10,628 nucleotides of DNA from a virus (Duplodnaviria > Heunggongvirae > Uroviricota > Caudoviricetes), in the IMG/VR virus record IMGVR_UViG_2547132488_000018, positions 1-10,628 of that record; one strand, 5' to 3'. Position numbers and translations under genes: made by a program. Below are positions 1 through 10,628 of this stretch, piece by piece (position 1 is the first letter of the stretch; every line of letters starts with the position of its first letter). The notes under the pieces were generated by a model. That model had not been told where the DNA came from. It did no database searches and saw only the letters and a program-made list of their open reading frames with translations.

Positions 1-127
1 CTGCAGTTCTCTGGAGTCACAGGCCCATTTCAGATCCTGTACCGCCTTAGCTTTCTTGATCATCCATTCGTAAATTTCATCATCGGTATAACCTGGCGCG
101 ATGATGACGGGTTCTGGTTTCTGCATA
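1..127 (-). CDS. Hypothetical protein, 5' portion only (start codon at 125-127, continues past window start)
   Basis: Reverse complement of 1-127 begins ATG and reads MQKPEPVIIAPGYTDDEIYEWMIKKAKAVQDLKWACDSRELQ with no stop; GAGGAA Shine-Dalgarno about 7 nt upstream on the minus strand (complement of 131-136). Not in the ORF track because it is truncated. Confidence 0.4.
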
Positions 128-315
128 TTGATTCCTCGCAGTACTGTTTCCCCTTAACGCCGGGGGGGCGGAACAAAAACCTGCTGCATAGTTAAAGTTG
201 AACCCTGCCGTCATGTTCTTACGCCTCGGGCTGGCTACTTACCCCCTGACCACTGCCTGGTAACTCGAAGTATTGCCCTGCGTTCTGTGGGGCGGGGTGG
301 GTTGGTGGAAATAAT

Positions 316-358
316 CTACAATTAAAAACTGTTTTGTGTCAACAGTTTTTAATTGTAG
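316..358. promoter_or_regulatory. Perfect 18-bp inverted repeat with 7-bp spacer; putative distal operator sharing a half-site with the repressor/cro intergenic palindrome
   Basis: CTACAATTAAAAACTGTT (316-333) + TTGTGTC + AACAGTTTTTAATTGTAG (341-358), exact reverse complements. Core AAAAACTGT / ACAGTTTTT recurs at 1354-1390. Confidence 0.4.
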
Positions 359-366
359 AGCTGGGC

Positions 367-392
367 AAAAAAACTCCCTCGAATGAGGGAGT
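367..392 (-). terminator. Rho-independent terminator for the leftward repressor-antitoxin-toxin operon
   Basis: Stem ACTCCCTC (373-380), loop GAAT, stem GAGGGAGT (385-392); on the minus strand the hairpin is followed by a U-run (complement of A-run 367-373). Lies about 17 nt past the parE-like stop at 409. Confidence 0.5.
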
Positions 393-408
393 ATGAAAAT
401 TGTTCAGT

Positions 409-696
409 TCAGATAGGGAAGGGAAATTGTCGGCGGGCATGCACAATATTTGCAATTTCAATGCTTGAAGCTGCTACTCGGTACAAAACGATATAATTAG
501 GGTGAACCACAATTTCCCGCAAACCGGATACTCGATCACTTGGCGGATATAGATATGGATGCTCGGAGAGGGCTAAAACAGACGTTTCAATACGTATTTT
601 TAGTCTGCGTGCTGCAGGAATATTTTCCTTAGCAATATAGGCTACGATCTGACGCAAATCATCGCGAGCAGATGGTAGCCATAAAATGGGTAACAT
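409..696 (-). CDS. parE2: ParE/RelE-superfamily type II toxin (ParE2-like)
   Basis: 95-aa ORF (MLPILWLPSARDDLRQIVAYI...VHPNYIVLYRV...IVHARRQ) with a ParE-like residue pattern; its start overlaps the upstream antitoxin stop by 1 nt (ATGA coupling). Family assignment is from recalled motifs, not a search. Confidence 0.75.
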   Translation of the reverse strand: MLPILWLPSARDDLRQIVAYIAKENIPAARRLKIRIETSVLALSEHPYLYPPSDRVSGLREIVVHPNYIVLYRVAASSIEIANIVHARRQFPFPI

Positions 697-887
697 TACT
701 CGCTCCTGTTAGTTACAGCAATTTGAGCAATAAGATTTTCTATTTCAGCCATTACCTCGTCATGTGGAATTGAGGGACGAGGGTCTGCAAGGCTTGACGC
801 CACTTTAGCGCGCAACCATTCGTTGTAACTGTTTTCTTGTTCGGTAGTTTCGAATTCTGAAACTATCGGAGAAAGGGCTGTACTCAT
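696..887 (-). CDS. paaA2: Small antitoxin, PaaA2-like (63 aa)
   Basis: 63-aa ORF immediately upstream of and coupled to the ParE-like gene; the size and position match the PaaA2 antitoxin of the paaR2-paaA2-parE2 module described in E. coli O157:H7. Confidence 0.65.
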   Translation of the reverse strand: MSTALSPIVSEFETTEQENSYNEWLRAKVASSLADPRPSIPHDEVMAEIENLIAQIAVTNRSE

Positions 888-914
888 GGCATAACTCCTC
901 TTCTTGTACAGTGG

Positions 915-1316
915 TCACGCCCGGCGGCTTTTTTGTGCCGCCAACCACCGGGCAATGGTTTCTTCCATTGATTTTTTCTTGTCTTTGATCTCTTGAAGCA
1001 TTTTTTCTTGGTCTTCCTCTGGAAACGCACTAAAAGCCTGAAGCAGTTCGCGTTGGCGAGGACCAATTTTCATCGTGTCAGGGGTGAAAATTTGCTCCCC
1101 CTCTTCAGGTGGCAATAAAAACCAATGCAATGGATGCCCTGTAACCTCAACCAGTTTATCCAAACTTGAGGCTTTAGGTGTAGCCTTACCGCTGACCCAT
1201 TGTTGAACAGTTTGTTGTGTCACACCAATTCTACGGGCCAGCTCAGCCTGGCTCCATCCAGTTTCCTGAAGAAGCTTGCTGATTCTGTACATAGATACTT
1301 CTAGAGCGTTCATCAT
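915..1316 (-). CDS. paaR2: XRE-family helix-turn-helix transcriptional repressor (PaaR2-like, CI-analog position)
   Basis: 133-aa ORF with a classic HTH (SQAELARRIGVTQQTVQQWVSGKATP); first gene of the leftward operon and divergent from the cro-like gene. No obvious Shine-Dalgarno upstream of the ATG at 1314-1316, so possibly leaderless. Confidence 0.7.
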   Translation of the reverse strand: MMNALEVSMYRISKLLQETGWSQAELARRIGVTQQTVQQWVSGKATPKASSLDKLVEVTGHPLHWFLLPPEEGEQIFTPDTMKIGPRQRELLQAFSAFPEEDQEKMLQEIKDKKKSMEETIARWLAAQKSRRA

Positions 1317-1337
1317 TATTCAATTTTACAGGTAAAT

Positions 1338-1413
1338 ACTGTTAAAAGCATCACAATAAAAAACTGTTGATCATATACAGTTTTTTATTGTAGGCTTTGC
1401 CTGTAGTTTTTTA
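1338..1413. promoter_or_regulatory. Divergent promoter/operator region between repressor and cro-like genes
   Basis: Inverted repeat CAATAAAAAACTGT (1354-1367) / ACAGTTTTTTATTG (1377-1390) with 9-bp spacer, plus further ACTGTT/CTGT motifs at 1338-1348 and 1401-1413. AGGAGG Shine-Dalgarno at 1414-1419 precedes the ATG at 1426. Confidence 0.5.
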
Positions 1414-1425
1414 GAGGAGGGCAAA

Positions 1426-1698
1426 ATGCTAGATAGCACTCGCGAAAAAATTAGGCAGAAATACACTCAAGCTGAAATAGGTCGTTATATGGGGGTCGCT
1501 CAACAGACTGTTTGGCAATGGTTTAGCTTTGGCGTTCCCCCAAAGCAGGTAATTCCGTTATGTCAGCTAATGAAGTGGGAAGTTACCCCGCATGAAATTC
1601 GCCCTGATATTTATCCTAACCCAACCGACGGGCTGCCTTGTGGAAATAAGTGTATGGCGAATGAATCACTGGCGGTGAACAATGAAAATCACCCCTGA
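1426..1698 (+). CDS. ydaS: Cro/YdaS-like HTH regulator
   Basis: 90-aa ORF with HTH (YMGVAQQTVWQWFSFG) and a C-terminal HEIRPDIYP motif recalled from YdaS-family proteins; strong Shine-Dalgarno; first rightward gene. Confidence 0.65.
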   Translation: MLDSTREKIRQKYTQAEIGRYMGVAQQTVWQWFSFGVPPKQVIPLCQLMKWEVTPHEIRPDIYPNPTDGLPCGNKCMANESLAVNNENHP

Positions 1699-2203
1699 AC
1701 AGGTTTGTGAGGCTCTGGATGCCTGGGTATGCCGACCAGGAATGACACAGGAGCAGGCGACGATATTAATCACGGAAGCATTCTGGGATCTGAAAGAACG
1801 CCCAAACATCGATGTTCAACGCGTCACGTTTGATGATGGCGCGGTTGATCAACGGGCGCTGGGCGTTAACCGGGTGAAGATATTCGAACGCTGGAAAGCT
1901 ATCGACACCAGGGATAAGCGTGAAAAATTCACGGCGCTGATTCCGGCAATTATGGAGGCGATCCGGTTCAGTGATTTCAGGTTGTATTGTGAAATTACTG
2001 ACGGAAAAAGCATTACATACATGATCGCCGGGTTAAACAAAGAATATGGCGATGTGGTGGAGTCCGGGCTGCTTTTTGCGGATCCAGCTGTTGTGGAACG
2101 TGAGACTGACGAGCTTATAGAAAAAGCCATTGCTTTCAAGCGTGCGTATCGTCAGCAATATCAACAAAAAGCCGGATGGAATTATGAGTCTTCTTTTTGC
2201 TGA
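1682..2203 (+). CDS. ydaT: YdaT-like protein (functional CII analog in CP-933P-type prophages)
   Basis: 173-aa ORF overlapping the cro-like gene by 17 nt; second rightward gene; the KREKFTALIPAIMEAI segment resembles what I recall of YdaT. Identity rests on recall and synteny. Confidence 0.55.
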   Translation: MKITPEQVCEALDAWVCRPGMTQEQATILITEAFWDLKERPNIDVQRVTFDDGAVDQRALGVNRVKIFERWKAIDTRDKREKFTALIPAIMEAIRFSDFRLYCEITDGKSITYMIAGLNKEYGDVVESGLLFADPAVVERETDELIEKAIAFKRAYRQQYQQKAGWNYESSFC

Positions 2204-3149
2204 ACGCCCACTGGTTATTAACACGCAGCTGGCGATGAAAATTGGTCTGAACGAAGCCATCGTGTTGCAGCAGCTGCATTACTGGTTGAGAGATACCGGT
2301 TCCGGCATGGAATGTGATGGTGTTCGCTGGATTTATAACACAACGGAACAATGGCTGGAACAGTTCCCGTTCTGGTCAGAGTCAACGTTAAAACGCGCAT
2401 TTGCAAGTCTGAAAGCGCTGGGGCTTTTGCGTTGTGAAAAGCTCAACAAATCAAAGCGTGACATGACTAATTTTTACACGATTAATTACGAGAGCGAGCT
2501 TTTAGATGGTGGCAAAGTGAGCGAATCCATCAGGTCAAAATGCGCCGCTCCATCAGGTCAAAATGACACGATGGAAGAGGCCAAAATGGCACGCTCCATT
2601 GGCTCAAAACGACCCAATGTCATCGGGTCAAAATGGCCTGATGATCTTACAGAGAATACAACAGAGATTACTACAGAGAATAAAAACACTTCTCGTCCGG
2701 AAGCTTCGCAACCGGACCAGCAGGCGGCTGAACAGGATTTTTTAACCCGACACCCTGACGCGGTTGTGTTCAGTGCGAAAAAACGCCAGTGGGGAAACCA
2801 GGAGGATTTAGCGTGTGCGCAGTGGATCTGGGGACGAATCGTGAGTCTTTACGAACAGGCTGCCAGCGATGATGGTGAGATCACGCGACCGAAAGAACCC
2901 AACTGGACTGCATGGGCCAATGACGTGCGCACAATGCGGATGCTTGATGGCAGAACTCACAGACAAATTTACGAAATGTTTGGTCGGGTACAGCGGGATC
3001 CATTCTGGGTAAAAAACGTCATGAGCCCGTCAAAGCTTCGCGAAAAATGGGACGAACTGGTCATCCGCCTGGGGCGTTCGCCTGTACAGCGTTGTGTGAA
3101 TCACATTTCTGAACCGGACACCGAAATTCCGCCGGGCTTCAGGGGGTAA
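2181..3149 (+). CDS. Phage replication initiation protein (lambda O-like / replisome organizer) with internal origin
   Basis: Winged-helix-like N-terminal domain, a low-complexity linker encoded by the iteron DNA, and a C-terminal domain. Start chosen at ATG 2181 (MSLLFAERP...) with GGATGG upstream; the ORF track's upstream in-frame start at 2130 is the alternative. Confidence 0.6.
   Translation: MMSLLFAERPLVINTQLAMKIGLNEAIVLQQLHYWLRDTGSGMECDGVRWIYNTTEQWLEQFPFWSESTLKRAFASLKALGLLRCEKLNKSKRDMTNFYTINYESELLDGGKVSESIRSKCAAPSGQNDTMEEAKMARSIGSKRPNVIGSKWPDDLTENTTEITTENKNTSRPEASQPDQQAAEQDFLTRHPDAVVFSAKKRQWGNQEDLACAQWIWGRIVSLYEQAASDDGEITRPKEPNWTAWANDVRTMRMLDGRTHRQIYEMFGRVQRDPFWVKNVMSPSKLREKWDELVIRLGRSPVQRCVNHISEPDTEIPPGFRG
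2526..2690. repeat. Replication origin: five iterons at 23-bp spacing followed by an AT-rich tract
   Basis: TCCATCAGGTCAAAATG at 2526-2542 and 2549-2565 (identical), degenerate copies at 2572-2588, 2595-2611 and 2620-2636, then AT-rich 2641-2690 with ACAGAGAAT-type repeats. Same architecture as ori-lambda inside gene O. Confidence 0.6.
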
Positions 3150-3189
3150 GTGTTAATTTCTGGTCATGAGGTAATTTTCAGGAGGGCTT

Positions 3190-3612
3190 GTGGCAAAAGT
3201 ATTTACACAAGAAGAGCGGGAAAAAATTAAGGGGCTGGTTGTTGAACTTGTACGCCAGAGCGGGCGCGAGACGTTACGACAACTGGAAGCTAAGACAGGT
3301 GCGACAAGATATTTAATAAGCGTTCTTGCCAGAGAGCTGGTTGCCAGTGGCGATGTATACAACTCTGGTTACGGGTTATTCCCGTCTGAACAGGCGCGTA
3401 AGGACTGGCAAAACGCCCGCAAAAAACTCTCGAGGGCAAAGCTGAAGAAAACATCTGTGGTTGATCCGGACCTTATCTGGTCGTTACCAGACGGAGAAAT
3501 ACGCCGCTACGACAGGCGTCAGAACATAATCTGTCGCGAGTGCCGGAAAAGCAAGGTTATGCAGCGTGTGCTGGCGTTTTATCAGGGTAATTTTCAGGAG
3601 GTGATGACGTGA
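3190..3612 (+). CDS. Hypothetical protein (GTG start)
   Basis: 140-aa ORF; GTG start at 3190 preceded by AGGAGG (3181-3186); its stop overlaps the next gene's GTG start (GTGA at 3609-3612). Confidence 0.55.
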   Translation: MAKVFTQEEREKIKGLVVELVRQSGRETLRQLEAKTGATRYLISVLARELVASGDVYNSGYGLFPSEQARKDWQNARKKLSRAKLKKTSVVDPDLIWSLPDGEIRRYDRRQNIICRECRKSKVMQRVLAFYQGNFQEVMT

Positions 3613-3908
3613 GGGTGAGAGTCTATATTGCCGGTCCAATGACCGGGTATAAAAATTTCAACCGTGAGGCGTTCCACAAGGCGGAAGAGGAACTGAAACG
3701 GGAAGGGCATACAGTCTTAAACCCGGCAGTACTTCCAGACGGGCTGACACAGCCACACTACATGGATATTTGCATGGCAATGATTCGTTGTGTGGATGCG
3801 ATTTACATGCTGAAAGGCTGGCAGCGGTCAGCAGGCGCTAAGGCAGAACTGGCGCTGGCGGAGAAACTGGGGCATGCAGTTATTTTCCAGGAGGCAAACA
3901 GTGAGTAA
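3609..3908 (+). CDS. DUF4406 / nucleoside 2-deoxyribosyltransferase-like protein
   Basis: 99-aa ORF whose N-terminal VYIAGPMTG motif is characteristic of the nucleoside 2-deoxyribosyltransferase-like fold; GTG start with AGGAGG at 3595-3600. Confidence 0.55.
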   Translation: MRVRVYIAGPMTGYKNFNREAFHKAEEELKREGHTVLNPAVLPDGLTQPHYMDICMAMIRCVDAIYMLKGWQRSAGAKAELALAEKLGHAVIFQEANSE

Positions 3909-4365
3909 CCAATGGCGACCAGATATTTGTCCTATAACCGGACGTGCATTTTTCATGTGGATTGAGCATCCGAAATTGGGCAATGTGCCGACGTATGGCG
4001 GCCCATTAGACAGTTACACCATTCCAACAAAGGACAGCGATGGTGAGTTTTCGTGTGAGCGTTACGATCATGATTTCGGTGGCTGGGTAGAAAGCGAATG
4101 TCTTGGGTTATATCTGATTGATGATAAAGAACAATGCAGAGTCTACGAACTCGAGGAACGCGTTAAAGAGCTGGAAGCGCGGGAAGTTCATTTGCCGACT
4201 CGCTACGGTCTTCGATATGGACACCCGATAAATGATGATGAACGCCACGTCATGATACCTAAAGAAAATGGCTGCTGGCTTTATCTGGCTGACTTAGAAC
4301 ATGAACTACGTGTTGCTGGCATTCATATCAAAGGAGAGGAGTATGGAAATAAAACCAGAAGATGA
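3901..4365 (+). CDS. Hypothetical phage protein
   Basis: ORF 3874-4365 trimmed to the in-frame GTG at 3901 (MSNQWRPD...), which has AGGAGG at 3887-3892 and overlaps the upstream stop by 8 nt. Confidence 0.5.
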   Translation: MSNQWRPDICPITGRAFFMWIEHPKLGNVPTYGGPLDSYTIPTKDSDGEFSCERYDHDFGGWVESECLGLYLIDDKEQCRVYELEERVKELEAREVHLPTRYGLRYGHPINDDERHVMIPKENGCWLYLADLEHELRVAGIHIKGEEYGNKTRR

Positions 4366-4699
4366 GTTAAGTAATATTGTTTTATTTCCGGCAAAAGAGG
4401 ATGACCCACGTAATCAGGTTAATTTTCTTTATGAGCCATCGGAAAGACCATATTGCCATCACGCTTCTGTCCGGGTTGACGAAAAAGAGCGTCAGGTCCG
4501 CTGTAAAATCTGCGGTGCAGTTGTGGAGCCGTTTGACTGGATGCTCTCAGTGGCGAAAAGAGAAACCAGACTGGCAGATGATGTAAGGCTATTGCGCCAG
4601 GAGGAACAGGAAAGGCGGAAAAATATAGAAAAGTTAATTCAGATTGAGCGTAACGCGAAAGCGCGGATACGCAGGGCGACAAAATCCAGAACTGAATAA
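4343..4699 (+). CDS. Hypothetical protein with CxxC pair and charged coiled-coil-like C-terminus
   Basis: ORF 4301-4699 trimmed to ATG 4343 (MEIKPEDEL...) with GGAGAGGAG Shine-Dalgarno; contains CHH...CKIC. Confidence 0.5.
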   Translation: MEIKPEDELSNIVLFPAKEDDPRNQVNFLYEPSERPYCHHASVRVDEKERQVRCKICGAVVEPFDWMLSVAKRETRLADDVRLLRQEEQERRKNIEKLIQIERNAKARIRRATKSRTE

Positions 4700-4794
4700 T
4701 TAAATTTAGCACTGTTAAAAATTTTATCCTTAACCGGAGGGATTTCTGCACCCTCAGAACATCAGGAGGCCGCCCTAAAGGGCGGTGATAAATA

Positions 4795-5271
4795 ATGCAA
4801 GACATCAAAGAAAATATCAGACAACAGCTTTACGGGTTTTATATTGCTTATGATTTGTGGCTGAGTAATGGGGCGAAACCAGGTGGGGTGTTTTCTCGAA
4901 ATTATGGTTTATGCGCCAATCTTTTCGATTATCTCACATCAATCGGTACCTCCAGCGAAGCGGCACTGGAACAATTACACGCTGATTTCAGAAGTGCCGG
5001 GCTGTATGAGGTGTTGCCATTTAACGAGAGTAATGGGCATTACCATGAAGAAAAAAGGAACAACATGTGCCATATGAACCCGTCGCGGGTGGCGTGGGTC
5101 AGGGCGCAGATGGTACAGGCAGTGCCGGACGGACTGGTTAAGGCTGTACGCTTCTATGAACAGGTAAAGTGTGAGAATCCGCCAGCTGAAACCGGAGCAT
5201 GGAAAGACGCTGTTGACTGGGTACTCAAGGAGGCCTGCCAGGCTGTAAACATTGGCAACAAAGGAGAGTGA
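4795..5271 (+). CDS. Hypothetical phage protein
   Basis: 158-aa ORF; AGGAGG at 4764-4769 and GGTGA nearer the ATG; its stop overlaps the downstream start region. Confidence 0.55.
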   Translation: MQDIKENIRQQLYGFYIAYDLWLSNGAKPGGVFSRNYGLCANLFDYLTSIGTSSEAALEQLHADFRSAGLYEVLPFNESNGHYHEEKRNNMCHMNPSRVAWVRAQMVQAVPDGLVKAVRFYEQVKCENPPAETGAWKDAVDWVLKEACQAVNIGNKGE

Positions 5272-5272
5272 T

Positions 5273-5491
5273 GTGCCTACATTATTCAGAAAAGAATATC
5301 CGCGAAAAAGTAGAGCGACAGAATTTTTGTTTCTCATTCTGTTTATCGTGTTGATGATACCGATATCCCCGCTAATTTTTGTCTGGGCAATCGGGAAAAT
5401 AATTGAGCCAGTTATTGAATTGTATAACGACGTGGTATGGGCGTCGTTCAACACACTGCACAATAAAATTAATCCGTATAAGGAAGGTTGA
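5273..5491 (+). CDS. Small hydrophobic (single-transmembrane) protein
   Basis: In-frame GTG at 5273 with AAGGAGAG at 5261-5268; hydrophobic core FLFLILFIVLMIPISPLIFVWAIG. The ORF track's TTG at 5252 is the alternative start. Confidence 0.4.
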   Translation: MPTLFRKEYPRKSRATEFLFLILFIVLMIPISPLIFVWAIGKIIEPVIELYNDVVWASFNTLHNKINPYKEG

Positions 5492-5492
5492 A

Positions 5493-5873
5493 ATGACCAT
5501 TACCACAAAAGAGCAGCAGAGATACAGTAAACAAGATTTAGGAGACGCTCTGGATTTTTATCTTTTTGAAGGTGATTTTGGTGCGCCATTCGATATTGAG
5601 TTATCGAATAAAATCGTTACCTCTCGCGGTGAATATACATGTCACATATGCGCCGGGAAAATCTCAAAGGGTGAAATACACCGCAGCACAACATGGAAAT
5701 TTGATGGCGAGCTTATGTCCTATAGATGCTGCAATGAGTGCTGTGTAGCGATGGTTAAAAGCGTCAATTATGAATATGAAGACAAAGACCCGGTAGAAGC
5801 ACGTTATGCGCTTGGGGAGGAGCGCAGGAGAGCAAAAACGCTGGAAAACCACTTGCGCACTAAAGGAGATTGA
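5493..5873 (+). CDS. Cys-rich (putative zinc-binding) hypothetical protein
   Basis: ORF 5403-5873 trimmed to ATG 5493 (MTITTKEQQ...) with AAGGAAGG Shine-Dalgarno; contains CHICAGK and CCNECC. Confidence 0.55.
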   Translation: MTITTKEQQRYSKQDLGDALDFYLFEGDFGAPFDIELSNKIVTSRGEYTCHICAGKISKGEIHRSTTWKFDGELMSYRCCNECCVAMVKSVNYEYEDKDPVEARYALGEERRRAKTLENHLRTKGD

Positions 5874-5874
5874 T

Positions 5875-6255
5875 ATGGCACTGACGAAAAAACAACGTGC
5901 AGAACTGCGCATGAAGTTCGGCGGTCGCTGTGCTTATTGCGGCTGCGAACTTGGCGAAAAGTGGCATGCAGACCATGTAAAACCGGTCATTCGTTTTGCT
6001 GGAAATATGCTTCACCAGGAACGTGACGATATATCCAACATGGTTCCGGCATGCCACCCATGCAATCTGCACAAGCATTGCAGTAGCCTGGAAGATTATC
6101 GGCGAATTATCAGTGATGGTCGTCGTGAATTCCTTGCGTCCGGGAAAGGCAAAGCGCTGGTTCGTATGGGATTGGTTGAAATGAAATCTGACCCGGTTGT
6201 GTTCTGGTTTGAAAAATATCAAGAAGGGAGGCTACAGCATGACCACTTTCACTGA
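5875..6255 (+). CDS. HNH endonuclease
   Basis: ORF 5806-6255 trimmed to ATG 5875 (MALTKKQRAEL...) with AAAGGAG Shine-Dalgarno; HNH signature CAYCGCEL...WHADHVKPV...NMVPACHPCNLHK. Confidence 0.7.
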   Translation: MALTKKQRAELRMKFGGRCAYCGCELGEKWHADHVKPVIRFAGNMLHQERDDISNMVPACHPCNLHKHCSSLEDYRRIISDGRREFLASGKGKALVRMGLVEMKSDPVVFWFEKYQEGRLQHDHFH

Positions 6256-6579
6256 CAAAGAAATGATTGAACAAAGAAACGTGGCGTTTTGATTTGCGAG
6301 TCGGGTTCAAAGAGGCTTTCCGCGTACTGCGGCCACACGGAGTTCTCATATTCAAATAGAACGATATGCAGATTTTAGCGTTCACTGACGTGAAACCAGC
6401 AATTGGCCAGCGCACCGGGAAAACGACACAATCCACTGGATTATTTTTGTTAAAGGCGGTTCGGTATGAAAATCAACTTAACAGAGTCAGCACCAGTAAC
6501 CGATAATGAACACGATCAGAGCCTATTGGCGCAGAGGGAATGATTTGAAATAGTAAGATCATTGATTGCTAAGTAAATT

Positions 6580-6603
6580 GTGCTGTAGTGGATACTACAG
6601 CAC
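6580..6603 (-). terminator. Perfect 10-bp stem / 4-nt loop hairpin at the 3' end of the minus-strand island
   Basis: GTGCTGTAGT GGAT ACTACAGCAC, 9 nt beyond the stop of the minus-strand gene ending at 6612. No clean U-run follows, so terminator function is uncertain. Confidence 0.35.
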
Positions 6604-6611
6604 TTCAGAAG

Positions 6612-7013
6612 TCACTTACTATTATTTTTCGCCTTGAGCATCGCGTTGTAGTACGCTATATGAACACTACCGAGCTTTGGATAAGGGACATTATTTTTTC
6701 TTGGTGCCTTAGAGAAAAACTCTGTAGTAAAAGGCAGGATAGATGTTCTGGCTAAGTCAAATTTAGTATCGTAGCTTAACCCAGATAGACCAAAAACATC
6801 ATCGCCATCAGCTTTTTGAATAAGAAACTCTGATGGGTAGAGTTTGTGTGTTTTTTGGCTCGTACCGAATGCAACTATGATTTCATGCTTTAGTTTCGAT
6901 ACACCTAATACCATACCTGGTCTCATTTTGGGAGTATCTCCCCCCCATTCTTCAGATGGTTGAAACCAAACAATATCGCCAGTCTTTGGCAATGGTTTTA
7001 TTTTCGAATGCAT
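6612..7013 (-). CDS. PemK/MazF-like putative toxin
   Basis: 133-aa ORF; the N-terminal GDIVWFQPSEEWGGDTPKMRPGMVLGVSKLKHEIIVAFGTSQ matches the MazF/Kid pattern (G-D/E-I, K/R-RP-x-V/L-L/V, then a hydrophobic strand ending TS). AT-rich codon usage; contains a G7 tract on the coding strand (complement of 6940-6946). Confidence 0.5.
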   Translation of the reverse strand: MHSKIKPLPKTGDIVWFQPSEEWGGDTPKMRPGMVLGVSKLKHEIIVAFGTSQKTHKLYPSEFLIQKADGDDVFGLSGLSYDTKFDLARTSILPFTTEFFSKAPRKNNVPYPKLGSVHIAYYNAMLKAKNNSK

Positions 7014-7021
7014 TTTTATAC

Positions 7022-7297
7022 CTACAATAGCATTTCGAAACTCTCATCCGGCGTTTGGTTAGTTTTCGATCTTTCATGTAGTGTCCGGAATTGAGCTTCG
7101 GTCAAGGGCCCATCATCTTGCTCATAAGCCGGGATGTATTTTTCCACTAAGTTTACGAGTGCAAAATGCATGAGGTCTGTTTTACTCATACCAGTAGCTT
7201 TCATTAGTTTTTCAAAGGATTCAGAACTGATACCGTTGATACCATCTTCTTCTTTGAATCTAAGGAGGAAGCTGTCAGGCTTTTTCATGCGTGACAT
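7022..7297 (-). CDS. Putative antitoxin / small DNA-binding protein (possible ribbon-helix-helix)
   Basis: 91-aa ORF 8 nt upstream of the MazF-like gene; AAGGAG Shine-Dalgarno on the minus strand; predicted strand-helix-helix pattern and an acidic C-terminal tail. The fold is inferred, not demonstrated. Confidence 0.45.
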   Translation of the reverse strand: MSRMKKPDSFLLRFKEEDGINGISSESFEKLMKATGMSKTDLMHFALVNLVEKYIPAYEQDDGPLTEAQFRTLHERSKTNQTPDESFEMLL

Positions 7298-7650
7298 AAG
7301 GACTCCTTAATGTTTAATTTCCGAACTGTATCTAAATCAAAAAGATAGTTATGCGTGTTTTGACCTACTTTAGACAGTGCTTTCACTTCAAGCATTTTGG
7401 ATCTTATGAGCTTATACATAATCGCAAGTTTGAAGACTATTAAGCGTGTAATTAACAAAATTAGCATAATCAATGGGATGCTAATTTTGAATTTTTCATT
7501 TTTTACTGAAACAGTTTGGGGAAGATTTTGCCCCCCCCGAACTCGAAGGAAGTCAAAGAAATGGCCATGTTTTTCAACTATATCTATTAAAAGTTGTTCA
7601 ATTCTTTCGGTGAGCATTAACATATGCTTAACATCTGTGCTTAAGGTCAT
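7285..7650 (-). CDS. Hypothetical small protein with hydrophobic segment; first gene of the island operon
   Basis: 121-aa ORF with an AAGGA Shine-Dalgarno; overlaps the next gene by 13 nt; hydrophobic stretch IPLIMLILLITRLIVFKLAIM; contains a G8 tract on the coding strand (complement of 7531-7538). Confidence 0.4.
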   Translation of the reverse strand: MTLSTDVKHMLMLTERIEQLLIDIVEKHGHFFDFLRVRGGQNLPQTVSVKNEKFKISIPLIMLILLITRLIVFKLAIMYKLIRSKMLEVKALSKVGQNTHNYLFDLDTVRKLNIKESLCHA

Positions 7651-7683
7651 AATGAATCCTTGTCGATAGAGATTTTCCCAATA

Positions 7684-7712
7684 AAGATATCAAAATGATA
7701 TCTTCTTTTCAA
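7684..7712 (-). promoter_or_regulatory. Candidate sigma70 promoter with overlapping palindromic operator for the island operon
   Basis: On the minus strand: -35 TTGAAA (complement of 7707-7712), 17-bp spacer, -10 TATCTT (complement of 7684-7689). Palindrome AGATATC-AAAAT-GATATCT (7685-7703) overlaps the spacer and -10. Confidence 0.35.
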
Positions 7713-7976
7713 GGTGGTTTTACTTTGGGAGCGAATGCAACAACTTCTTGCTATGTGTTGAGATCAATTGATACTAGGTGTCGAAAATCTTGGTATGAGG
7801 CTGTATGTTCTTTAGTTGTATATCATTGTTCAGGACTACAGCGTTAAGAAGTACACGAAAGACAAGCAAGCTGTGCGCTGCGGTCATGCTGTGCCGTCGC
7901 CGTTCGTTGGGTGTTGGTGAGGGCTAATTTGGCGGAGCTATACCAGTCGAAACGAATAGCAGCCTGACCTATAATT

Positions 7977-8002
7977 CCCTCGATAATCCGAGGGTATTTT
8001 TT
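7977..8002 (+). terminator. Hairpin plus T-run immediately upstream of the ATG at 8003; also sequesters its Shine-Dalgarno
   Basis: CCCTCG (7977-7982), loop ATAATC, CGAGGG (7989-7994), then TATTTTTT. A TATAAT hexamer sits at 7970-7975 and the GAGGG Shine-Dalgarno for the 8003 gene lies in the 3' arm. Confidence 0.4.
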
Positions 8003-8248
8003 ATGTTTGATTTCAACATCGCAGCAAAATTAAAAGAAGAGCAGGACAAGGTTAGCGTTGATCTTGCAGCGTCCGGCGTTGCGTACAAGGAGAGCCTTAA
8101 TCAGCCAGTAGTTGCCGAACACGTAGCAAGAGAGCTGCCGGAACATCTGCGCGAATACTTCATGGACCGCGTTCGCCTTAGCCTGACACTGCCAAAAGCA
8201 TCCGATCCGTGTTATCTGGATATGGCAGTGCAGAACGAGAAAAAATAA
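8003..8248 (+). CDS. Hypothetical phage protein (81 aa)
   Basis: ORF with GAGGG Shine-Dalgarno 8 nt upstream; its stop overlaps the next ATG (TAATG at 8246-8250). Confidence 0.55.
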   Translation: MFDFNIAAKLKEEQDKVSVDLAASGVAYKESLNQPVVAEHVARELPEHLREYFMDRVRLSLTLPKASDPCYLDMAVQNEKK

Positions 8249-8502
8249 TGGGCTGCCTGATTGTAAGCGGTATCAACTTTTACATCTTGGCCGAAGGCGA
8301 GGCATATCCAGACCCGAATTCTGATGATACGTATTTCGGTGCTTATGCTGTGTTCCCGTCAGAAGGTAAATGAGTAGCACAAAAATACTTCTGGACTGGT
8401 AACTGGCACGACATAACTGACCAGATATTTAACACCGAAAACGAGGCGTTTAACTTCACTTACGAATACGCATTTGCGCCGGAAAATTGCCACAAATTTT
8501 AA
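8248..8502 (+). pseudogene. Small ORF interrupted by an in-frame TGA at 8371-8373 (nonsense pseudogene or readthrough candidate)
   Basis: ATG at 8248 reads 41 codons to TGA (8371-8373); the same frame then continues open for 42 more codons to TAA at 8500-8502, directly followed by a strong terminator. Confidence 0.4.
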
Positions 8503-8527
8503 CCCGCTTTGGCGGGTTTTGTTTTTT
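8503..8527 (+). terminator. Rho-independent terminator
   Basis: CCCGC (8503-8507), loop TTTG, GCGGG (8512-8516), followed by TTTTGTTTTTT (8517-8527). Confidence 0.65.
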
Positions 8528-8599
8528 CCTGGCATTCTGGTTTACAATCCTCACGCTAGCCTGAACAACTGGCACCTGCTGCGCCAGCAGAGACAACCG

Positions 8600-8878
8600 A
8601 TGGCGCACGATACCAAATTGCACAATTCTAATGATTCTGCCGTCCTTGCCAGCAGGCACGGGCGGTGTTCTCACGCATTCAAATATGACTGGTATCAGCA
8701 TGACCCCTGCACTGAAGAACAGGCCGAATGGCTGATTCAGAACTACCGCAGACGTGGGTATGAGTTTAAGAAAGCCCTTAGTCTCGACTACCGTCACTGG
8801 ATAATCTCAGTCAGATTGCCTTACTCCGAATGCCCACCGCGTCCGTCCCGTACATTCCAGCAACGCACCTGGAGGTAA
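8600..8878 (+). CDS. Hypothetical protein (92 aa)
   Basis: ORF 8474-8878 trimmed to the first ATG after the terminator (8600, MAHDTKL...); weak Shine-Dalgarno; a possible promoter TTGTTT-17 bp-TACAAT lies at 8519-8547; its stop abuts the next gene's start. Confidence 0.4.
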   Translation: MAHDTKLHNSNDSAVLASRHGRCSHAFKYDWYQHDPCTEEQAEWLIQNYRRRGYEFKKALSLDYRHWIISVRLPYSECPPRPSRTFQQRTWR

Positions 8879-8879
8879 C

Positions 8880-9935
8880 GTGCGGGTATTACTTCGACCT
8901 GTTCTGGTACCGGAACTCGGGCTGGTGGTCGTTAAGCCGGGCCGTGAATCCATGCCGGTATTCCACAATACCCGGGTACTGGTGGAGCCGGAACCGAAAA
9001 GCATGCGTAATCTGCCGTCCGGGGTCGTTCCTGCCGTTCGCCAGCCGCTGGTGGAAGACAAAACATTGCTGCCGTTCTTCAGTAACGCACGGGTAATTCG
9101 TGCTGCTGGTGGTGCTGGTGCATTGTCTGACTGGCTGTTGCGCCATATTAAATCCTGCCAGTGGCCACACGGCGATTATCATCACAGCGAAACCGTTATT
9201 CACCGTTATGGTACCGGCGCAATGGTGTTGTGCTGGCACTGCGACAACCAGCTGCGTGACCAGACATCCGAATCACTCGAGCAACTTGCTCATCAAAACC
9301 TGTCAGCATGGATGATTGACGTCATACGCCATGCAATGAATGGCACGCAGGAGCGGGAATTATCGCTGGCTGAATTATCCTGGTGGGCGGTCTGCAATCA
9401 GGTGGCGGACGCGCTACCAGAGGCAGCATTACGTCGTTCTCTGGGGTTACGTGCGGAAAAAATTCGCTCAGTATACCGCGAGAGCGACATCGTACCGGGA
9501 GAGCAGACCGCCACCAGCATACTGAAGCAGCGCACAAAAAATCTTGCGCCGGTGCCTCACGCCCACCAGCAAAACCCGCCACAGGAAAAGACGGTGGTCA
9601 GCATTGCCGTTGATCCGGAGTCACCGGCTCAGTATCTCCAGCGCCAGAAATCACAACGAGAAGAGATGCCTGTATACACGCGCTGGGTAAAAACGCAGAA
9701 ATGCATGACGTGCGGTAATCAGGCAGATGATCCGCATCACATCATTGGTCATGGACTGGGAGGGATGGGAACAAAGGCTGATGATTTGTTTGTTATTCCG
9801 CTGTGCCGTAAATGTCATAACGAACTGCACGCCGGGGTAAAAGATTTTGAAGAAAAACACGGCAGCCAGCTGTTGTTGCTGATTCGTTTTTTAATGCACG
9901 CGAGAAATTCGGGTGTCCTGAAGTGGAAAGCATGA
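8880..9935 (+). CDS. DUF968-like phage protein (YdfU-like) with C-terminal Cys/His HNH-like motif
   Basis: 351-aa ORF; GTG start with GGAGG at 8871-8875; C-terminal CMTCGN...HHIIGHGLGG...CRKCHNELH; sits immediately upstream of rusA, as ydfU-family genes do in E. coli cryptic prophages. Confidence 0.55.
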   Translation: MRVLLRPVLVPELGLVVVKPGRESMPVFHNTRVLVEPEPKSMRNLPSGVVPAVRQPLVEDKTLLPFFSNARVIRAAGGAGALSDWLLRHIKSCQWPHGDYHHSETVIHRYGTGAMVLCWHCDNQLRDQTSESLEQLAHQNLSAWMIDVIRHAMNGTQERELSLAELSWWAVCNQVADALPEAALRRSLGLRAEKIRSVYRESDIVPGEQTATSILKQRTKNLAPVPHAHQQNPPQEKTVVSIAVDPESPAQYLQRQKSQREEMPVYTRWVKTQKCMTCGNQADDPHHIIGHGLGGMGTKADDLFVIPLCRKCHNELHAGVKDFEEKHGSQLLLLIRFLMHARNSGVLKWKA

Positions 9936-10301
9936 ATGACTGAACGGATAGAATTTGTTTTGCCTTACCCGCCGACGGTGAATACCTACTGGCGACGTCA
10001 TGGCAATACGTATTTCATCTCGGAGGCCGGAAAGCGTTATCGCCGTGATGTGGCGCTAATTGTTCGCCAGCAGCGGCTGAAATTAAACCTGTCCGGAAGG
10101 CTGGCGATAAAGATTATTGCAGAGCCACCGGATAAGCGCCGTCGTGACCTGGACAATATTCTGAAAGCACCACTGGATGCGCTGACGCATGCCGGACTTC
10201 TCATAGACGACGAGCAGTTTGATGAAATCAATATTGTGCGCGGTCAGCGCGTTCCTGGGGGGCGGCTGGGCGTGAAGATTTACAAAATTGAGAGTGAGTG
10301 A
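9936..10301 (+). CDS. rusA: Crossover junction endodeoxyribonuclease RusA (Holliday junction resolvase)
   Basis: 121-aa ORF with RusA hallmarks (LPYPPTVNTYWRRHG..., RRRDLDNILKAPLDALTHAG..., DDEQF); start directly follows the upstream stop. Confidence 0.85.
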   Translation: MTERIEFVLPYPPTVNTYWRRHGNTYFISEAGKRYRRDVALIVRQQRLKLNLSGRLAIKIIAEPPDKRRRDLDNILKAPLDALTHAGLLIDDEQFDEINIVRGQRVPGGRLGVKIYKIESE

Positions 10302-10309
10302 TCGTAAAT

Positions 10310-10628
10310 ATGATATACCCGGAAATTACAGGCAAAAGCGGCGAGCATTTACGTCTAAAAACGCTGGAAGCCGTCTGGATCCAGGGGAAATTACGGATGT
10401 GGGGGCGTTGGTCGTATATAGGTGGTGGCAAAACAGGAAATATGTTCAATCAGTTGCTGGCATCCAAAAAACTGACAAAAACCGCGATCAATGAAGCCCT
10501 GCGTAGACTCAGGGAGTCAGGGATTGATAAACCAGAGCTGGAAGCATTCTTGCGAGAGATGATCGCTGGCAGACAGAAGAGCTGGTTGTCTCACTGTACT
10601 GATGCAGAGGCGTTACGCATTGATGGGG
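10310..10628 (+). CDS. Putative late-gene antiterminator Q, N-terminal part (truncated by window end)
   Basis: ATG at 10310 is open to the window end (MIYPEITGKSGEHLRLKTLEAVWIQGKLRMWGRWSYIGGGK...); position right after rusA is where Q sits in lambdoid phages; loose WG-W and LL-SK resemblance to recalled QuuD-type Q proteins. Confidence 0.4.
   Translation, partial: MIYPEITGKSGEHLRLKTLEAVWIQGKLRMWGRWSYIGGGKTGNMFNQLLASKKLTKTAINEALRRLRESGIDKPELEAFLREMIAGRQKSWLSHCTDAEALRIDG

Follow-up and report, generated by a model that had tools for sequence, protein, structure and literature searches.

A predicted PemK/MazF-type toxin-antitoxin operon carrying an additional membrane-type gene in a cargo slot of a lambdoid prophage

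Background

What are three small genes, set against the direction of all the phage genes around them, doing in an AT-rich block of a lambdoid prophage? The question is raised by the window analysed here, that is, the whole 10,628-nucleotide stretch forming positions 1 to 10,628 of the IMG/VR virus record IMGVR_UViG_2547132488_000018, in which three minus-strand open reading frames (ORFs) encode proteins of 121, 91 and 133 residues, called genes 1, 2 and 3 in their order along that strand. An original prediction had taken them for a candidate undescribed toxin-antitoxin (TA) or defence module, with gene 1 encoding a small membrane protein, gene 2 a putative antitoxin and gene 3 a MazF/PemK-like protein. 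The exact coordinates of the ORFs (7650-7285, 7297-7022 and 7013-6612) and their tight packing were confirmed. Our analysis indicates that the cassette holds a real type II TA module. Taken as a whole, it is probably an autoregulated type II TA operon, expressed in the lysogen and carried as cargo at a recombination hotspot of the prophage. The view of a three-gene module stands for the enterobacterial cassette, which does comprise three genes, and has to be corrected for the core module, which has two.

The toxin gene

The 133-aa product of gene 3 (6612..7013, minus strand) was compared with sequence, profile and structure libraries. A word-index search retrieved 14 close relatives, all from Enterobacterales, 3 of which are named 'PemK/MazF family toxin' by NCBI. 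Faint matches were also obtained with the NCBIfam MazF model and with the PHROG 'MazF-like growth inhibitor' family. By exhaustive profile search the family was extended to 595 representative clusters at E <= 1e-3, including 198 at E <= 1e-10, most of which are full-length proteins of 130-150 aa. The Pfam profile PemK_toxin was matched by 43 out of 56 diverse relatives (best E = 3e-8), and its gathering score was passed by 6 of the 10 relatives tested. Sequence identity between the window toxin and the members of the family ranges from 26 to 62%.

The profile of the toxin family was then aligned with E. coli MazF using hhalign, yielding a probability of 86% and E = 5e-6. In this alignment R31-P32 is paired with MazF R29-P30 and T51-S52-Q53 with T52-T53-Q54. 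Across the 56 relatives, T51 is invariant and R31 nearly invariant. MazF catalysis depends on a widely conserved pair of residues, an Arg in the beta1-beta2 loop and a Thr, as exemplified by R25/T48 in MazF-bs and R29/T52 in MazF-sth (PMC10893535). Judging from the alignment, R31 and T51 are the putative catalytic residues of the window toxin. The AlphaFold model of the protein is of moderate quality (predicted local distance difference test, pLDDT, 65; predicted template modelling score, pTM, 0.66) and contains six strands and a C-terminal helix. When it was submitted to Foldseek, the top 44 or so PDB matches were all MazF structures, with weak scores; the predicted fold is compatible with MazF.

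The C-terminal half of the protein carries a conserved pattern specific to the subfamily, SGLSYDTKFD…LPF…PKLG.LH, and the net charge of the toxin is +7. A MazF/Kid-like N-terminal signature followed by an unusual C-terminus had been anticipated, and the profile, hhalign and Foldseek searches all point to MazF, with a PemK match restricted to the N-terminal half. We conclude from these sequence comparisons that the 133-aa protein belongs to a divergent PemK/MazF subfamily, which is broad and uncharacterised. The term 'undescribed' holds insofar as our literature search found no paper describing the toxin or antitoxin family; it is too strong insofar as NCBI automatically names some toxin relatives 'PemK/MazF family toxin'.

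The antitoxin gene and its pairing with the toxin

To analyse gene neighbourhoods, 94 loci encoding toxin relatives were assembled. Of these, 80 came from species-representative genomes chosen among 273 confirmed hits, 13 were enterobacterial (prophage loci or viral contigs) and 1 was a divergent viral contig. All of them were scanned with hidden Markov models (HMMs) of the three window proteins. A homolog of the 91-aa product of gene 2 (7022..7297, minus strand) was detected directly upstream of the toxin gene, on the same strand, in 91 of the 94 loci. Two of the three exceptions are truncated by contig ends. The two genes are separated by gaps of 0-9 nt or overlap, and the pair is found on prophages, plasmids and chromosomes of Alpha-, Beta- and Gammaproteobacteria, including Burkholderiales, Pseudomonas, Photorhabdus, Buttiauxella, Gluconobacter and Asticcacaulis.

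Plasmids encoding the antitoxin numbered 49 and those encoding the toxin 55, most of them being conjugative plasmids of Klebsiella. On the K. pneumoniae IncFII/FIB plasmid NZ_CP018818.1, for instance, a 94-aa antitoxin and a 142-aa toxin separated by a 9-nt gap are encoded at 2486-3208, about 1.4 kb from repA. The two-gene version on this plasmid and on 54 others (large Klebsiella, E. coli and Serratia plasmids) carries the annotation 'hypothetical protein' in most cases. In a 6.2-kb Aeromonas plasmid the pair lies beside parA/parG.

Some of the database labels met in this survey call for caution. A 1026-bp contig (QFQM01000936.1) from a metagenome-assembled genome (MAG) labelled 'Flavobacterium psychrophilum' encodes an enterobacterial antitoxin-toxin pair whose toxin is 93% identical to that of the window, and this contig has almost certainly entered the bin by contamination. 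The label 'Bordetella parapertussis' likewise looks wrong for several freshwater MAGs.

The antitoxin family has the consensus L-x-R-x-R; D-S-x-T-G-V-T; a helix; G-x-x-E-T-Q-V-I-H-L-A-L; L-P-x-Y-E-x-D-D-G-P-L-T; a variable tail, acidic or basic; and a final S-L-F. In the window protein, the N-terminal L-x-R-x-R strand motif is followed by two helices, the LPxYExDDGPLT motif and an acidic tail. Its net charge is -4 overall and -5 over residues 55-91; the complementarity with the +7 toxin is only suggestive of direct neutralisation. No significant match to the 91-aa protein was found in Pfam, NCBIfam, PHROGs, PADLOC or PDB sequences. In particular, it matched no AbrB/MazE domain in Pfam or NCBIfam, its predicted secondary structure being helical, and no ribbon-helix-helix (RHH) profile at significance. 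Sub-threshold Pfam matches were recorded among 39 members of the family, 8 to PSK_trans_fac (best E = 0.0025), 2 to VapB_antitoxin and 1 to RHH_1. Given the strand in which basic residues alternate, followed by two helices, these weak RHH matches and the palindromic subsites of the operator described below, we lean towards an RHH-like domain. The prediction that the middle gene encodes an antitoxin is borne out by its position upstream of the toxin gene, its acidic character and its association with a conserved operator, and the 91-aa protein is a probable antitoxin and autorepressor.

Promoter and operator

A sigma-70-type promoter is predicted upstream of gene 1 on the minus strand, with a -35 element TTGAAA at 7707..7712 and a -10 element TATCTT at 7684..7689, preceded by TG, the two being 17 nt apart. 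The -10 element lies inside the second of two GATATC palindromes (7702-7697 and 7691-7686), which together form a putative operator at 7686..7702. The palindromes are separated by 5 nt, or 11 bp from centre to centre, and the minus strand reads TTGAAA-agaa-GATATC-atttt-GATATC-tt. Around the hexamers a longer inverted repeat, AAGATATC-ATTTT-GATATCTT (7704-7684), overlaps the promoter spacer and the -10 element.

The consensus scan for promoters performs at chance level when taken alone (3 sites found for 4.6 expected), and the support for this site comes from comparative evidence instead. In every three-gene cassette the GATATC pair precedes gene 1, even where the remaining upstream sequence is unrelated, and a TTGnnn element is found at a constant distance from the operator. 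In the two-gene relatives some 38 nt separate the GATATC pair from the start of the antitoxin gene, and a TTGACA -35 element usually precedes the pair. The strict motif GATATC-N5-GATATC was detected in 44 of 86 upstream regions, with 0 other sites in the 654 kb of flanks that were fetched; a relaxed motif was detected in 67 of the 86, against 5 background sites. A sigma-70-like -10 element overlaps one of the hexamers in 46 of the 63 distinct operator-bearing regions. No obvious GATATC pair was found within 120 nt upstream of the pair on the K. pneumoniae plasmid mentioned above.

The conservation of a GATATC pair overlapping the promoter points to autorepression by the antitoxin, whose binding to this putative operator we infer from the sequence comparisons. 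Similar arrangements have been characterised elsewhere: the operator bound in the YefM-YoeB system consists of paired TGTACA palindromes (PMC1802561), and the RHH antitoxin MazE6 binds an operator at its -10 element (PMC9477884). A literature search on the GATATC operator yielded no description of this family. A second, degenerate motif in the 3' end of gene 1, CTATC-TTTTT-GATTTA, was considered as a relic or internal operator and was rejected since neither motif nor promoter is conserved in other cassettes.

The pairing and the operator bear on a different reading of the locus, in which the 133-aa protein would have a MazF-like barrel but no toxicity, and would form with its partner a DNA- or RNA-binding regulatory couple of mobile elements. 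We judge this quite improbable. Among 56 diverse relatives the catalytic Arg and Thr positions are kept, and TA systems typically show the features seen here, with an antitoxin-first order, a basic protein paired with an acidic one and an autoregulatory operator. Moreover, the pair adjoins plasmid replication and partition genes, the same slot in sister phages is occupied by bona fide TA systems, and one carrier has a frameshifted toxin gene next to an intact antitoxin gene.

Operon layout and selection on the three genes

Each of the first two genes is preceded by a Shine-Dalgarno sequence, AAGGA at 7661-7657 for gene 1 and AAGGAG at 7308-7303 for gene 2. The ATG of gene 2 (7297-7295) comes right after AAGGAG and before the TGA of gene 1 (7287-7285), resulting in a 13-nt overlap of the two genes, and the ATG of gene 3 (7013) is located 8 nt past the TAG of gene 2. 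A stem-loop with a perfect 10-bp stem (6580..6603, minus strand) follows the toxin stop codon by 9 nt. Its folding energy of -15.9 kcal/mol (z = -3.98) was equalled by none of 200 shuffled sequences. Its T-tail is weak and lacks a good T-tract, and it may be either a transcript-end or a stabiliser hairpin. An own promoter candidate and a hairpin, both part of the original prediction, are thus present, the former with comparative backing.

The ratio of nonsynonymous to synonymous substitution rates (dN/dS) was calculated across genera and amounted to 0.16-0.28 for gene 1, 0.09-0.15 for gene 2 and 0.07-0.16 for gene 3. Such cross-genus purifying selection indicates that the three genes are real and separate rather than chance ORFs. 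Each is conserved in other genera, and they are not pieces of one larger gene, an outcome that would have contradicted the prediction.

These values also bear on the idea that the cassette is decaying junk, a set of ORFs left behind where recombination scarred an AT-rich part of a defective prophage. In its favour, the methyltransferase gene next to the cassette is a truncated pseudogene, a frameshift disrupts the toxin gene of one E. coli strain (B4103-1), and the prophage of that strain has truncated terminase and portal genes. Intact genes under purifying selection across genera already contradict this idea, and the translation signals and the operator are conserved as well, so that we find it scarcely credible.

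Two homopolymer runs were observed in the coding sequence of this 33-39% GC block, a G8 run at 7531-7538 in gene 1 and a G7 run at 6940-6946 in the toxin gene. Homopolymer runs are slippage-prone. In E. coli O27:H7 B4103-1, at the equivalent of window positions 6939-6946, one base is lost after the G7 run (TGGGGGGGAGAT becomes TGGGGGGG-GAT), which frameshifts the toxin at about codon 27; the RefSeq product has 104 aa, and the antitoxin gene and gene 1 are intact. The only natural frameshift seen therefore adjoins the G7 run of the toxin gene.

The membrane-type gene

Gene 1 (7285..7650, minus strand) encodes a protein with one strongly hydrophobic segment, at about residues 56-79 (window positions 7414-7485, approximately), with a 19-residue Kyte-Doolittle peak of 2.57 and positive charges on either side. 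An R or K at position 69 and a K at position 74 are found inside the segment in nearly all homologs. Such basic residues are atypical of a plain anchor and hint that the segment forms a helix that oligomerises or lines a pore, or else a transmembrane stretch followed by an amphipathic helix. Only a core is conserved, FFDF…SVKNEKFKISIPLI.LI.LI..LIVFKLAIMYK…LE.K, and the N-terminus diverges freely. A conserved C-terminal motif, K-E-x-L-C-x-A (window 7285-7310), coincides with the AAGGAG, the ATG and the first codons of gene 2, and its conservation is explained by these overlapping translation signals rather than by a function of its own. No match to the protein was found in Pfam, PHROG, PADLOC, NCBIfam or PDB sequences.

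Homologs of gene 1 were identified in E. coli, Citrobacter, Klebsiella/Raoultella, Enterobacter, Phytobacter, Pectobacterium and Pantoea. They accompany the TA pair in every case and head the operon, with the GATATC operator upstream of them. Gene 1 and the antitoxin gene overlap by 13 nt in every cassette examined except the Pantoea locus, where the overlap is 37 nt, and no operator or promoter was found between the two genes. Gene 1 occurs in two different mobile contexts, the Pantoea copy adjoining an integrase fragment and a transposase. Within the limited sensitivity of the searches, it was found in none of the two-gene relatives, in none of 72,556 plasmids and in none of 50,697 phage genomes; nor, with the same limit, was it found away from the TA pair in viral contigs or in the genome contexts of at least 6 genera. 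The first gene had been expected to have no counterpart in two-gene loci, and it is indeed confined to the enterobacterial cassette. At least 120 metagenome loci match a degenerate DNA pattern for the KNEKFKI motif of gene 1, and none of those listed encodes a homolog of any of the three proteins.

The simplest history suggested by these sequence comparisons is that a two-gene module acquired gene 1 in a single insertion, downstream of its operator-promoter and upstream of its antitoxin gene. Such a history fits with the toxin identities, which are at least 60% inside the lineage of three-gene cassettes and at most 48% to the two-gene relatives.

Two conflicting indications have to be weighed regarding its function, as the strict co-occurrence of gene 1 with the TA pair favours coupling and the self-sufficiency of the two-gene module favours a passenger. 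Under the passenger view, two unrelated functions would share one promoter, an ordinary two-gene MazF-type TA module and an independent lysogenic-conversion gene, for example for a membrane protein of superinfection exclusion or immunity, that would be expressed in lysogens from the TA promoter, which is constitutive and autoregulated. The two-gene module needs no gene 1 to be complete and is widespread in that form, and the soluble N- and C-terminal parts of the gene 1 protein change considerably faster than the TA genes do. Prophage morons typically include small exclusion proteins of the inner membrane, which also speaks for this view. It is at odds with the failure to find gene 1 without the TA pair in any of the collections searched, and with its place within the regulated unit, its overlap with the antitoxin start being kept at the same length in all but the one cassette. 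On this evidence we regard it as possible, if rather doubtful.

At the other end stands a true three-component system, in which the membrane protein would be wired to the MazF-type TA pair, either as a sensor of membrane or injection events caused by a phage that triggers release of the RNase or as a second, membrane-acting effector restrained by the antitoxin. This seems unlikely to us. If it were true, it would represent a new class of membrane-coupled tripartite TA or abortive-infection system, created by insertion of a gene in the gap between operator and antitoxin gene of a MazF/antitoxin family that is widespread, little studied as yet and equipped with a GATATC-pair operator. The chances are evenly poised for a broader proposition, namely that gene 1 is an integral accessory of the enterobacterial cassette that links the module to the membrane and serves as a modulator or trigger in phage exclusion.

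Proposed mechanism

In the autoregulated TA operon that we favour, the sigma-70 promoter (TTGAAA, 17 nt, TATCTT) would transcribe genes 1, 2 and 3 as one mRNA, antisense to the early-right operon of the phage and ending near the hairpin at 6603-6580. The 133-aa product would be a MazF-family endoribonuclease, with R31 and T51 corresponding to the Arg and Thr that act in MazF catalysis. The 91-aa product would neutralise it by direct binding through its acidic C-terminal part, while its N-terminal part, probably an RHH-like dimer reading DNA with the L-x-R-x-R strand, would bind the GATATC pair overlapping the -10 element and repress the operon. Gene 1 would encode a small membrane protein, inserted in one enterobacterial lineage and translationally coupled to the antitoxin.

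A failure of antitoxin supply would free the toxin and arrest growth. Candidate triggers are loss of the element, shut-off of transcription by an infecting phage, and antisense read-through upon prophage induction. The last possibility is speculative: since the early-right transcript and the cassette are antisense to each other, less antitoxin may be made once the prophage is induced. The release of the toxin would stabilise the element or abort the infection.

Several observations weigh against this proposal. Compared on its own with PemK_toxin (PF02452), the 133-aa protein matches over residues 10-73 with E = 6e-4 and 20.3 bits, under the cut-off of 23.1 bits, and the PemK matches in the family all end at position 55-79 of the 109 profile positions (most at 62-65), leaving the C-terminal half unaccounted for. 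The weak RHH matches of the antitoxin are mixed with equally weak matches to helix-turn-helix (HTH) families, and the alignment of its family by hhalign with a genuine RHH protein, ParD, was uninformative at 1.5% probability. The AlphaFold2 monomer of the antitoxin is poor (pLDDT 58, pTM 0.33), with helices at 25-35 and 39-60 and a disordered N-terminus, and the fold search carried out with it was likewise uninformative. The operator geometry does not discriminate between folds, because paired palindromes serve the non-RHH antitoxin YefM too. None of the three proteins matched the PADLOC-DB v2 defence HMMs at E <= 1. Finally, more than 270 two-gene relatives lack gene 1, which may therefore be just a passenger.

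Genomic context of the cassette

The G+C fraction is 0.33-0.39 over positions 6450-7800, approximately, and 0.45-0.57 in the flanks. All the phage genes neighbouring the cassette are on the plus strand and its own three genes on the minus strand, in agreement with the AT-rich block of opposite orientation originally described. The surroundings are those of a Rac/Qin-like lambdoid prophage, with a cI-like repressor, YdaS/YdaT-like genes and a DUF4406 gene. On the plus strand, an HNH endonuclease (5806-6255) is encoded on one side of the cassette, and a homolog of the theta subunit of DNA polymerase III (HolE-like; 8003-8248, Pfam E = 9e-25), DUF968/ydfU (8880-9935) and RusA (9936-10301) are encoded on the other.

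Comparison with two sister prophages delimited a variable cargo slot at 6253..8548, from the HNH endonuclease gene to the DUF968/ydfU region. Their homology to the window ends at about 6252, the end of the HNH gene, and returns at about 8549-8583. In the window the slot holds the cassette, a methyltransferase remnant (at about 6267-6469) and the theta-subunit homolog. In one of the sister prophages it holds a ParD/ParE pair, likewise on the opposing strand, and in the other hokD and rem. Between genera, the cassettes share only the stretch at about 6583-7518 plus the operator. Out of 5426 complete E. coli genomes, just 4 contain the cassette DNA, each of the three genes being labelled 'hypothetical' there, and isolated phage genomes yielded no DNA or protein match to the cassette. 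These comparisons directly support the view of the cassette as a horizontally acquired moron in a TA hotspot, as had been proposed from its orientation and composition. The Rfam search over the whole window gave no match.

Other features of the window deserve mention. The remnant at 6267-6469, on the plus strand, with the HNH endonuclease gene on one side and the end of the toxin gene on the other, derives from an S-adenosylmethionine-dependent methyltransferase gene; RefSeq describes it as frameshifted, internally stopped and partial. This truncated gene adjoins the cassette. In the cassette locus of Phytobacter, an intact D12-class methyltransferase gene is found two genes past the end of the toxin gene, beyond an Ead/Ea22-like gene. 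Ahead of the theta-subunit homolog, a promoter-like TCGAAA/TATAAT (7947-7975) is directly followed by a GC-rich hairpin with a T-run (7977-7994), before the start codon. This odd layout suggests a leader or attenuator, or the terminator of an upstream unit.

A second TA module, also made of three genes, was identified at the left end of the window (409-1316, minus strand). It comprises a 133-aa HTH_3/cI-like protein (915-1316), a PaaA2 'stability determinant' antitoxin (696-887, Pfam E = 1e-21) and a ParE toxin (409-696, E = 7e-16) whose gene overlaps that of PaaA2 at ATGA. The module looks like the known PaaR-PaaA-ParE arrangement, in which case the prophage holds two TA systems within 10 kb.

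Significance

If our interpretation is true, the toxin defines a large unstudied branch of MazF-type TA systems, with 595 toxin clusters, at least 273 species-level genomes and a presence on conjugative Klebsiella plasmids. The antitoxin would lie outside the curated families and, its operator being readable from the sequence, would offer a ready repressor-operator pair for testing. The annotation of many 'hypothetical' genes located beside the replication genes of clinical plasmids would be improved. The history of gene 1 would provide a clean evolutionary event, the capture of a new gene inside an autoregulated TA operon, and its product a candidate membrane-linked third TA component, for which we found no precedent. 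Besides ParDE and hokD/relBE, the cassette would be a third type of TA cargo in one defined slot of Rac/Qin-like lambdoid prophages, which supports such slots as exchange points for addiction and defence modules. These findings extend current understanding and overturn none of it; the main surprise for a specialist, should it prove true, would be a membrane protein acting as a working third component.

Comparison with known systems

Three-component TA systems such as PaaR-PaaA-ParE, omega-epsilon-zeta and HigBA-SecB ('TAC') resemble the cassette in having three co-transcribed genes, a TA pair and an extra partner. Their third component is a transcriptional regulator or a SecB-like chaperone, whereas here it is a small membrane protein encoded first in the operon; library searches with gene 1 gave no HTH, RHH-regulator or SecB match, and no precedent for a membrane gene within a TA operon was found among the three-component systems in the literature.

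The XF1863-type antitoxins associated with MazF (Makarova 2009) are, like the 91-aa protein, small, proteobacterial, adjacent to MazF and devoid of an assigned fold, with a predicted strand-helix-helix structure. They form a different family: membership of the 91-aa protein was rejected because the published supplementary alignment (GMRPIQLWV.DTR…) bears no resemblance to our family. The YefM-YoeB system shares with the cassette two adjacent short palindromes with a 6-bp core that overlap the promoter, the motif being conserved across diverse genomes (PMC1802561). It differs by its core, TGTACA instead of GATATC, and by its proteins, a Phd/YefM antitoxin and a RelE-like YoeB toxin.

Likeness is also found with MazEF of E. 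coli and Kis/Kid (PemIK) of plasmid R1, which belong to the same toxin superfamily and have a near-identical N-terminal motif, P-x-x-GD-hydrophobic-W, then R-P-x-hydrophobic-V. The tryptophan of the motif is residue 14 in E. coli MazF and residue 16 in the window toxin. The catalytic set of Kid differs. The addiction or abortive-infection logic is presumed to be alike. MazE, Kis and PemI are swapped-hairpin proteins of the AbrB/SpoVT type, unlike the 91-aa protein, which has no such match and is predicted to be helical.

Counterparts are also found in the MazEF systems with an RHH-type MazE, namely B. subtilis MazE (EndoAI) and M. tuberculosis MazE4, 6, 7 and 9, with their MazF partners. As in the cassette, the antitoxin gene comes first and a MazF-family toxin gene second, the small antitoxin binds DNA with its N-terminal part and the toxin with its C-terminal tail (both predicted here), the operator overlaps the -10 element (PMC9477884), and the catalytic Arg and Thr are conserved. 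Pairings of MazF with RHH proteins are common, with 81 cases recorded (Makarova 2009). Compared with these systems, the window toxin is about 20-30 residues longer and its C-terminal half is unmatched by the PemK profile; the 91-aa antitoxin has no significant RHH or MazE profile match and a long predicted strand-to-helix loop; the operator is a pair of GATATC hexamers; and the prophage version adds a third, membrane gene. By analogy, the module would work like MazEF-type type II TA systems with a DNA-binding antitoxin, a well-known kind of pairing, from which it appears to differ at the sequence level in four respects: the C-terminal half of the toxin, an uncurated antitoxin family, a GATATC-pair operator and, in enteric prophages, the membrane gene.

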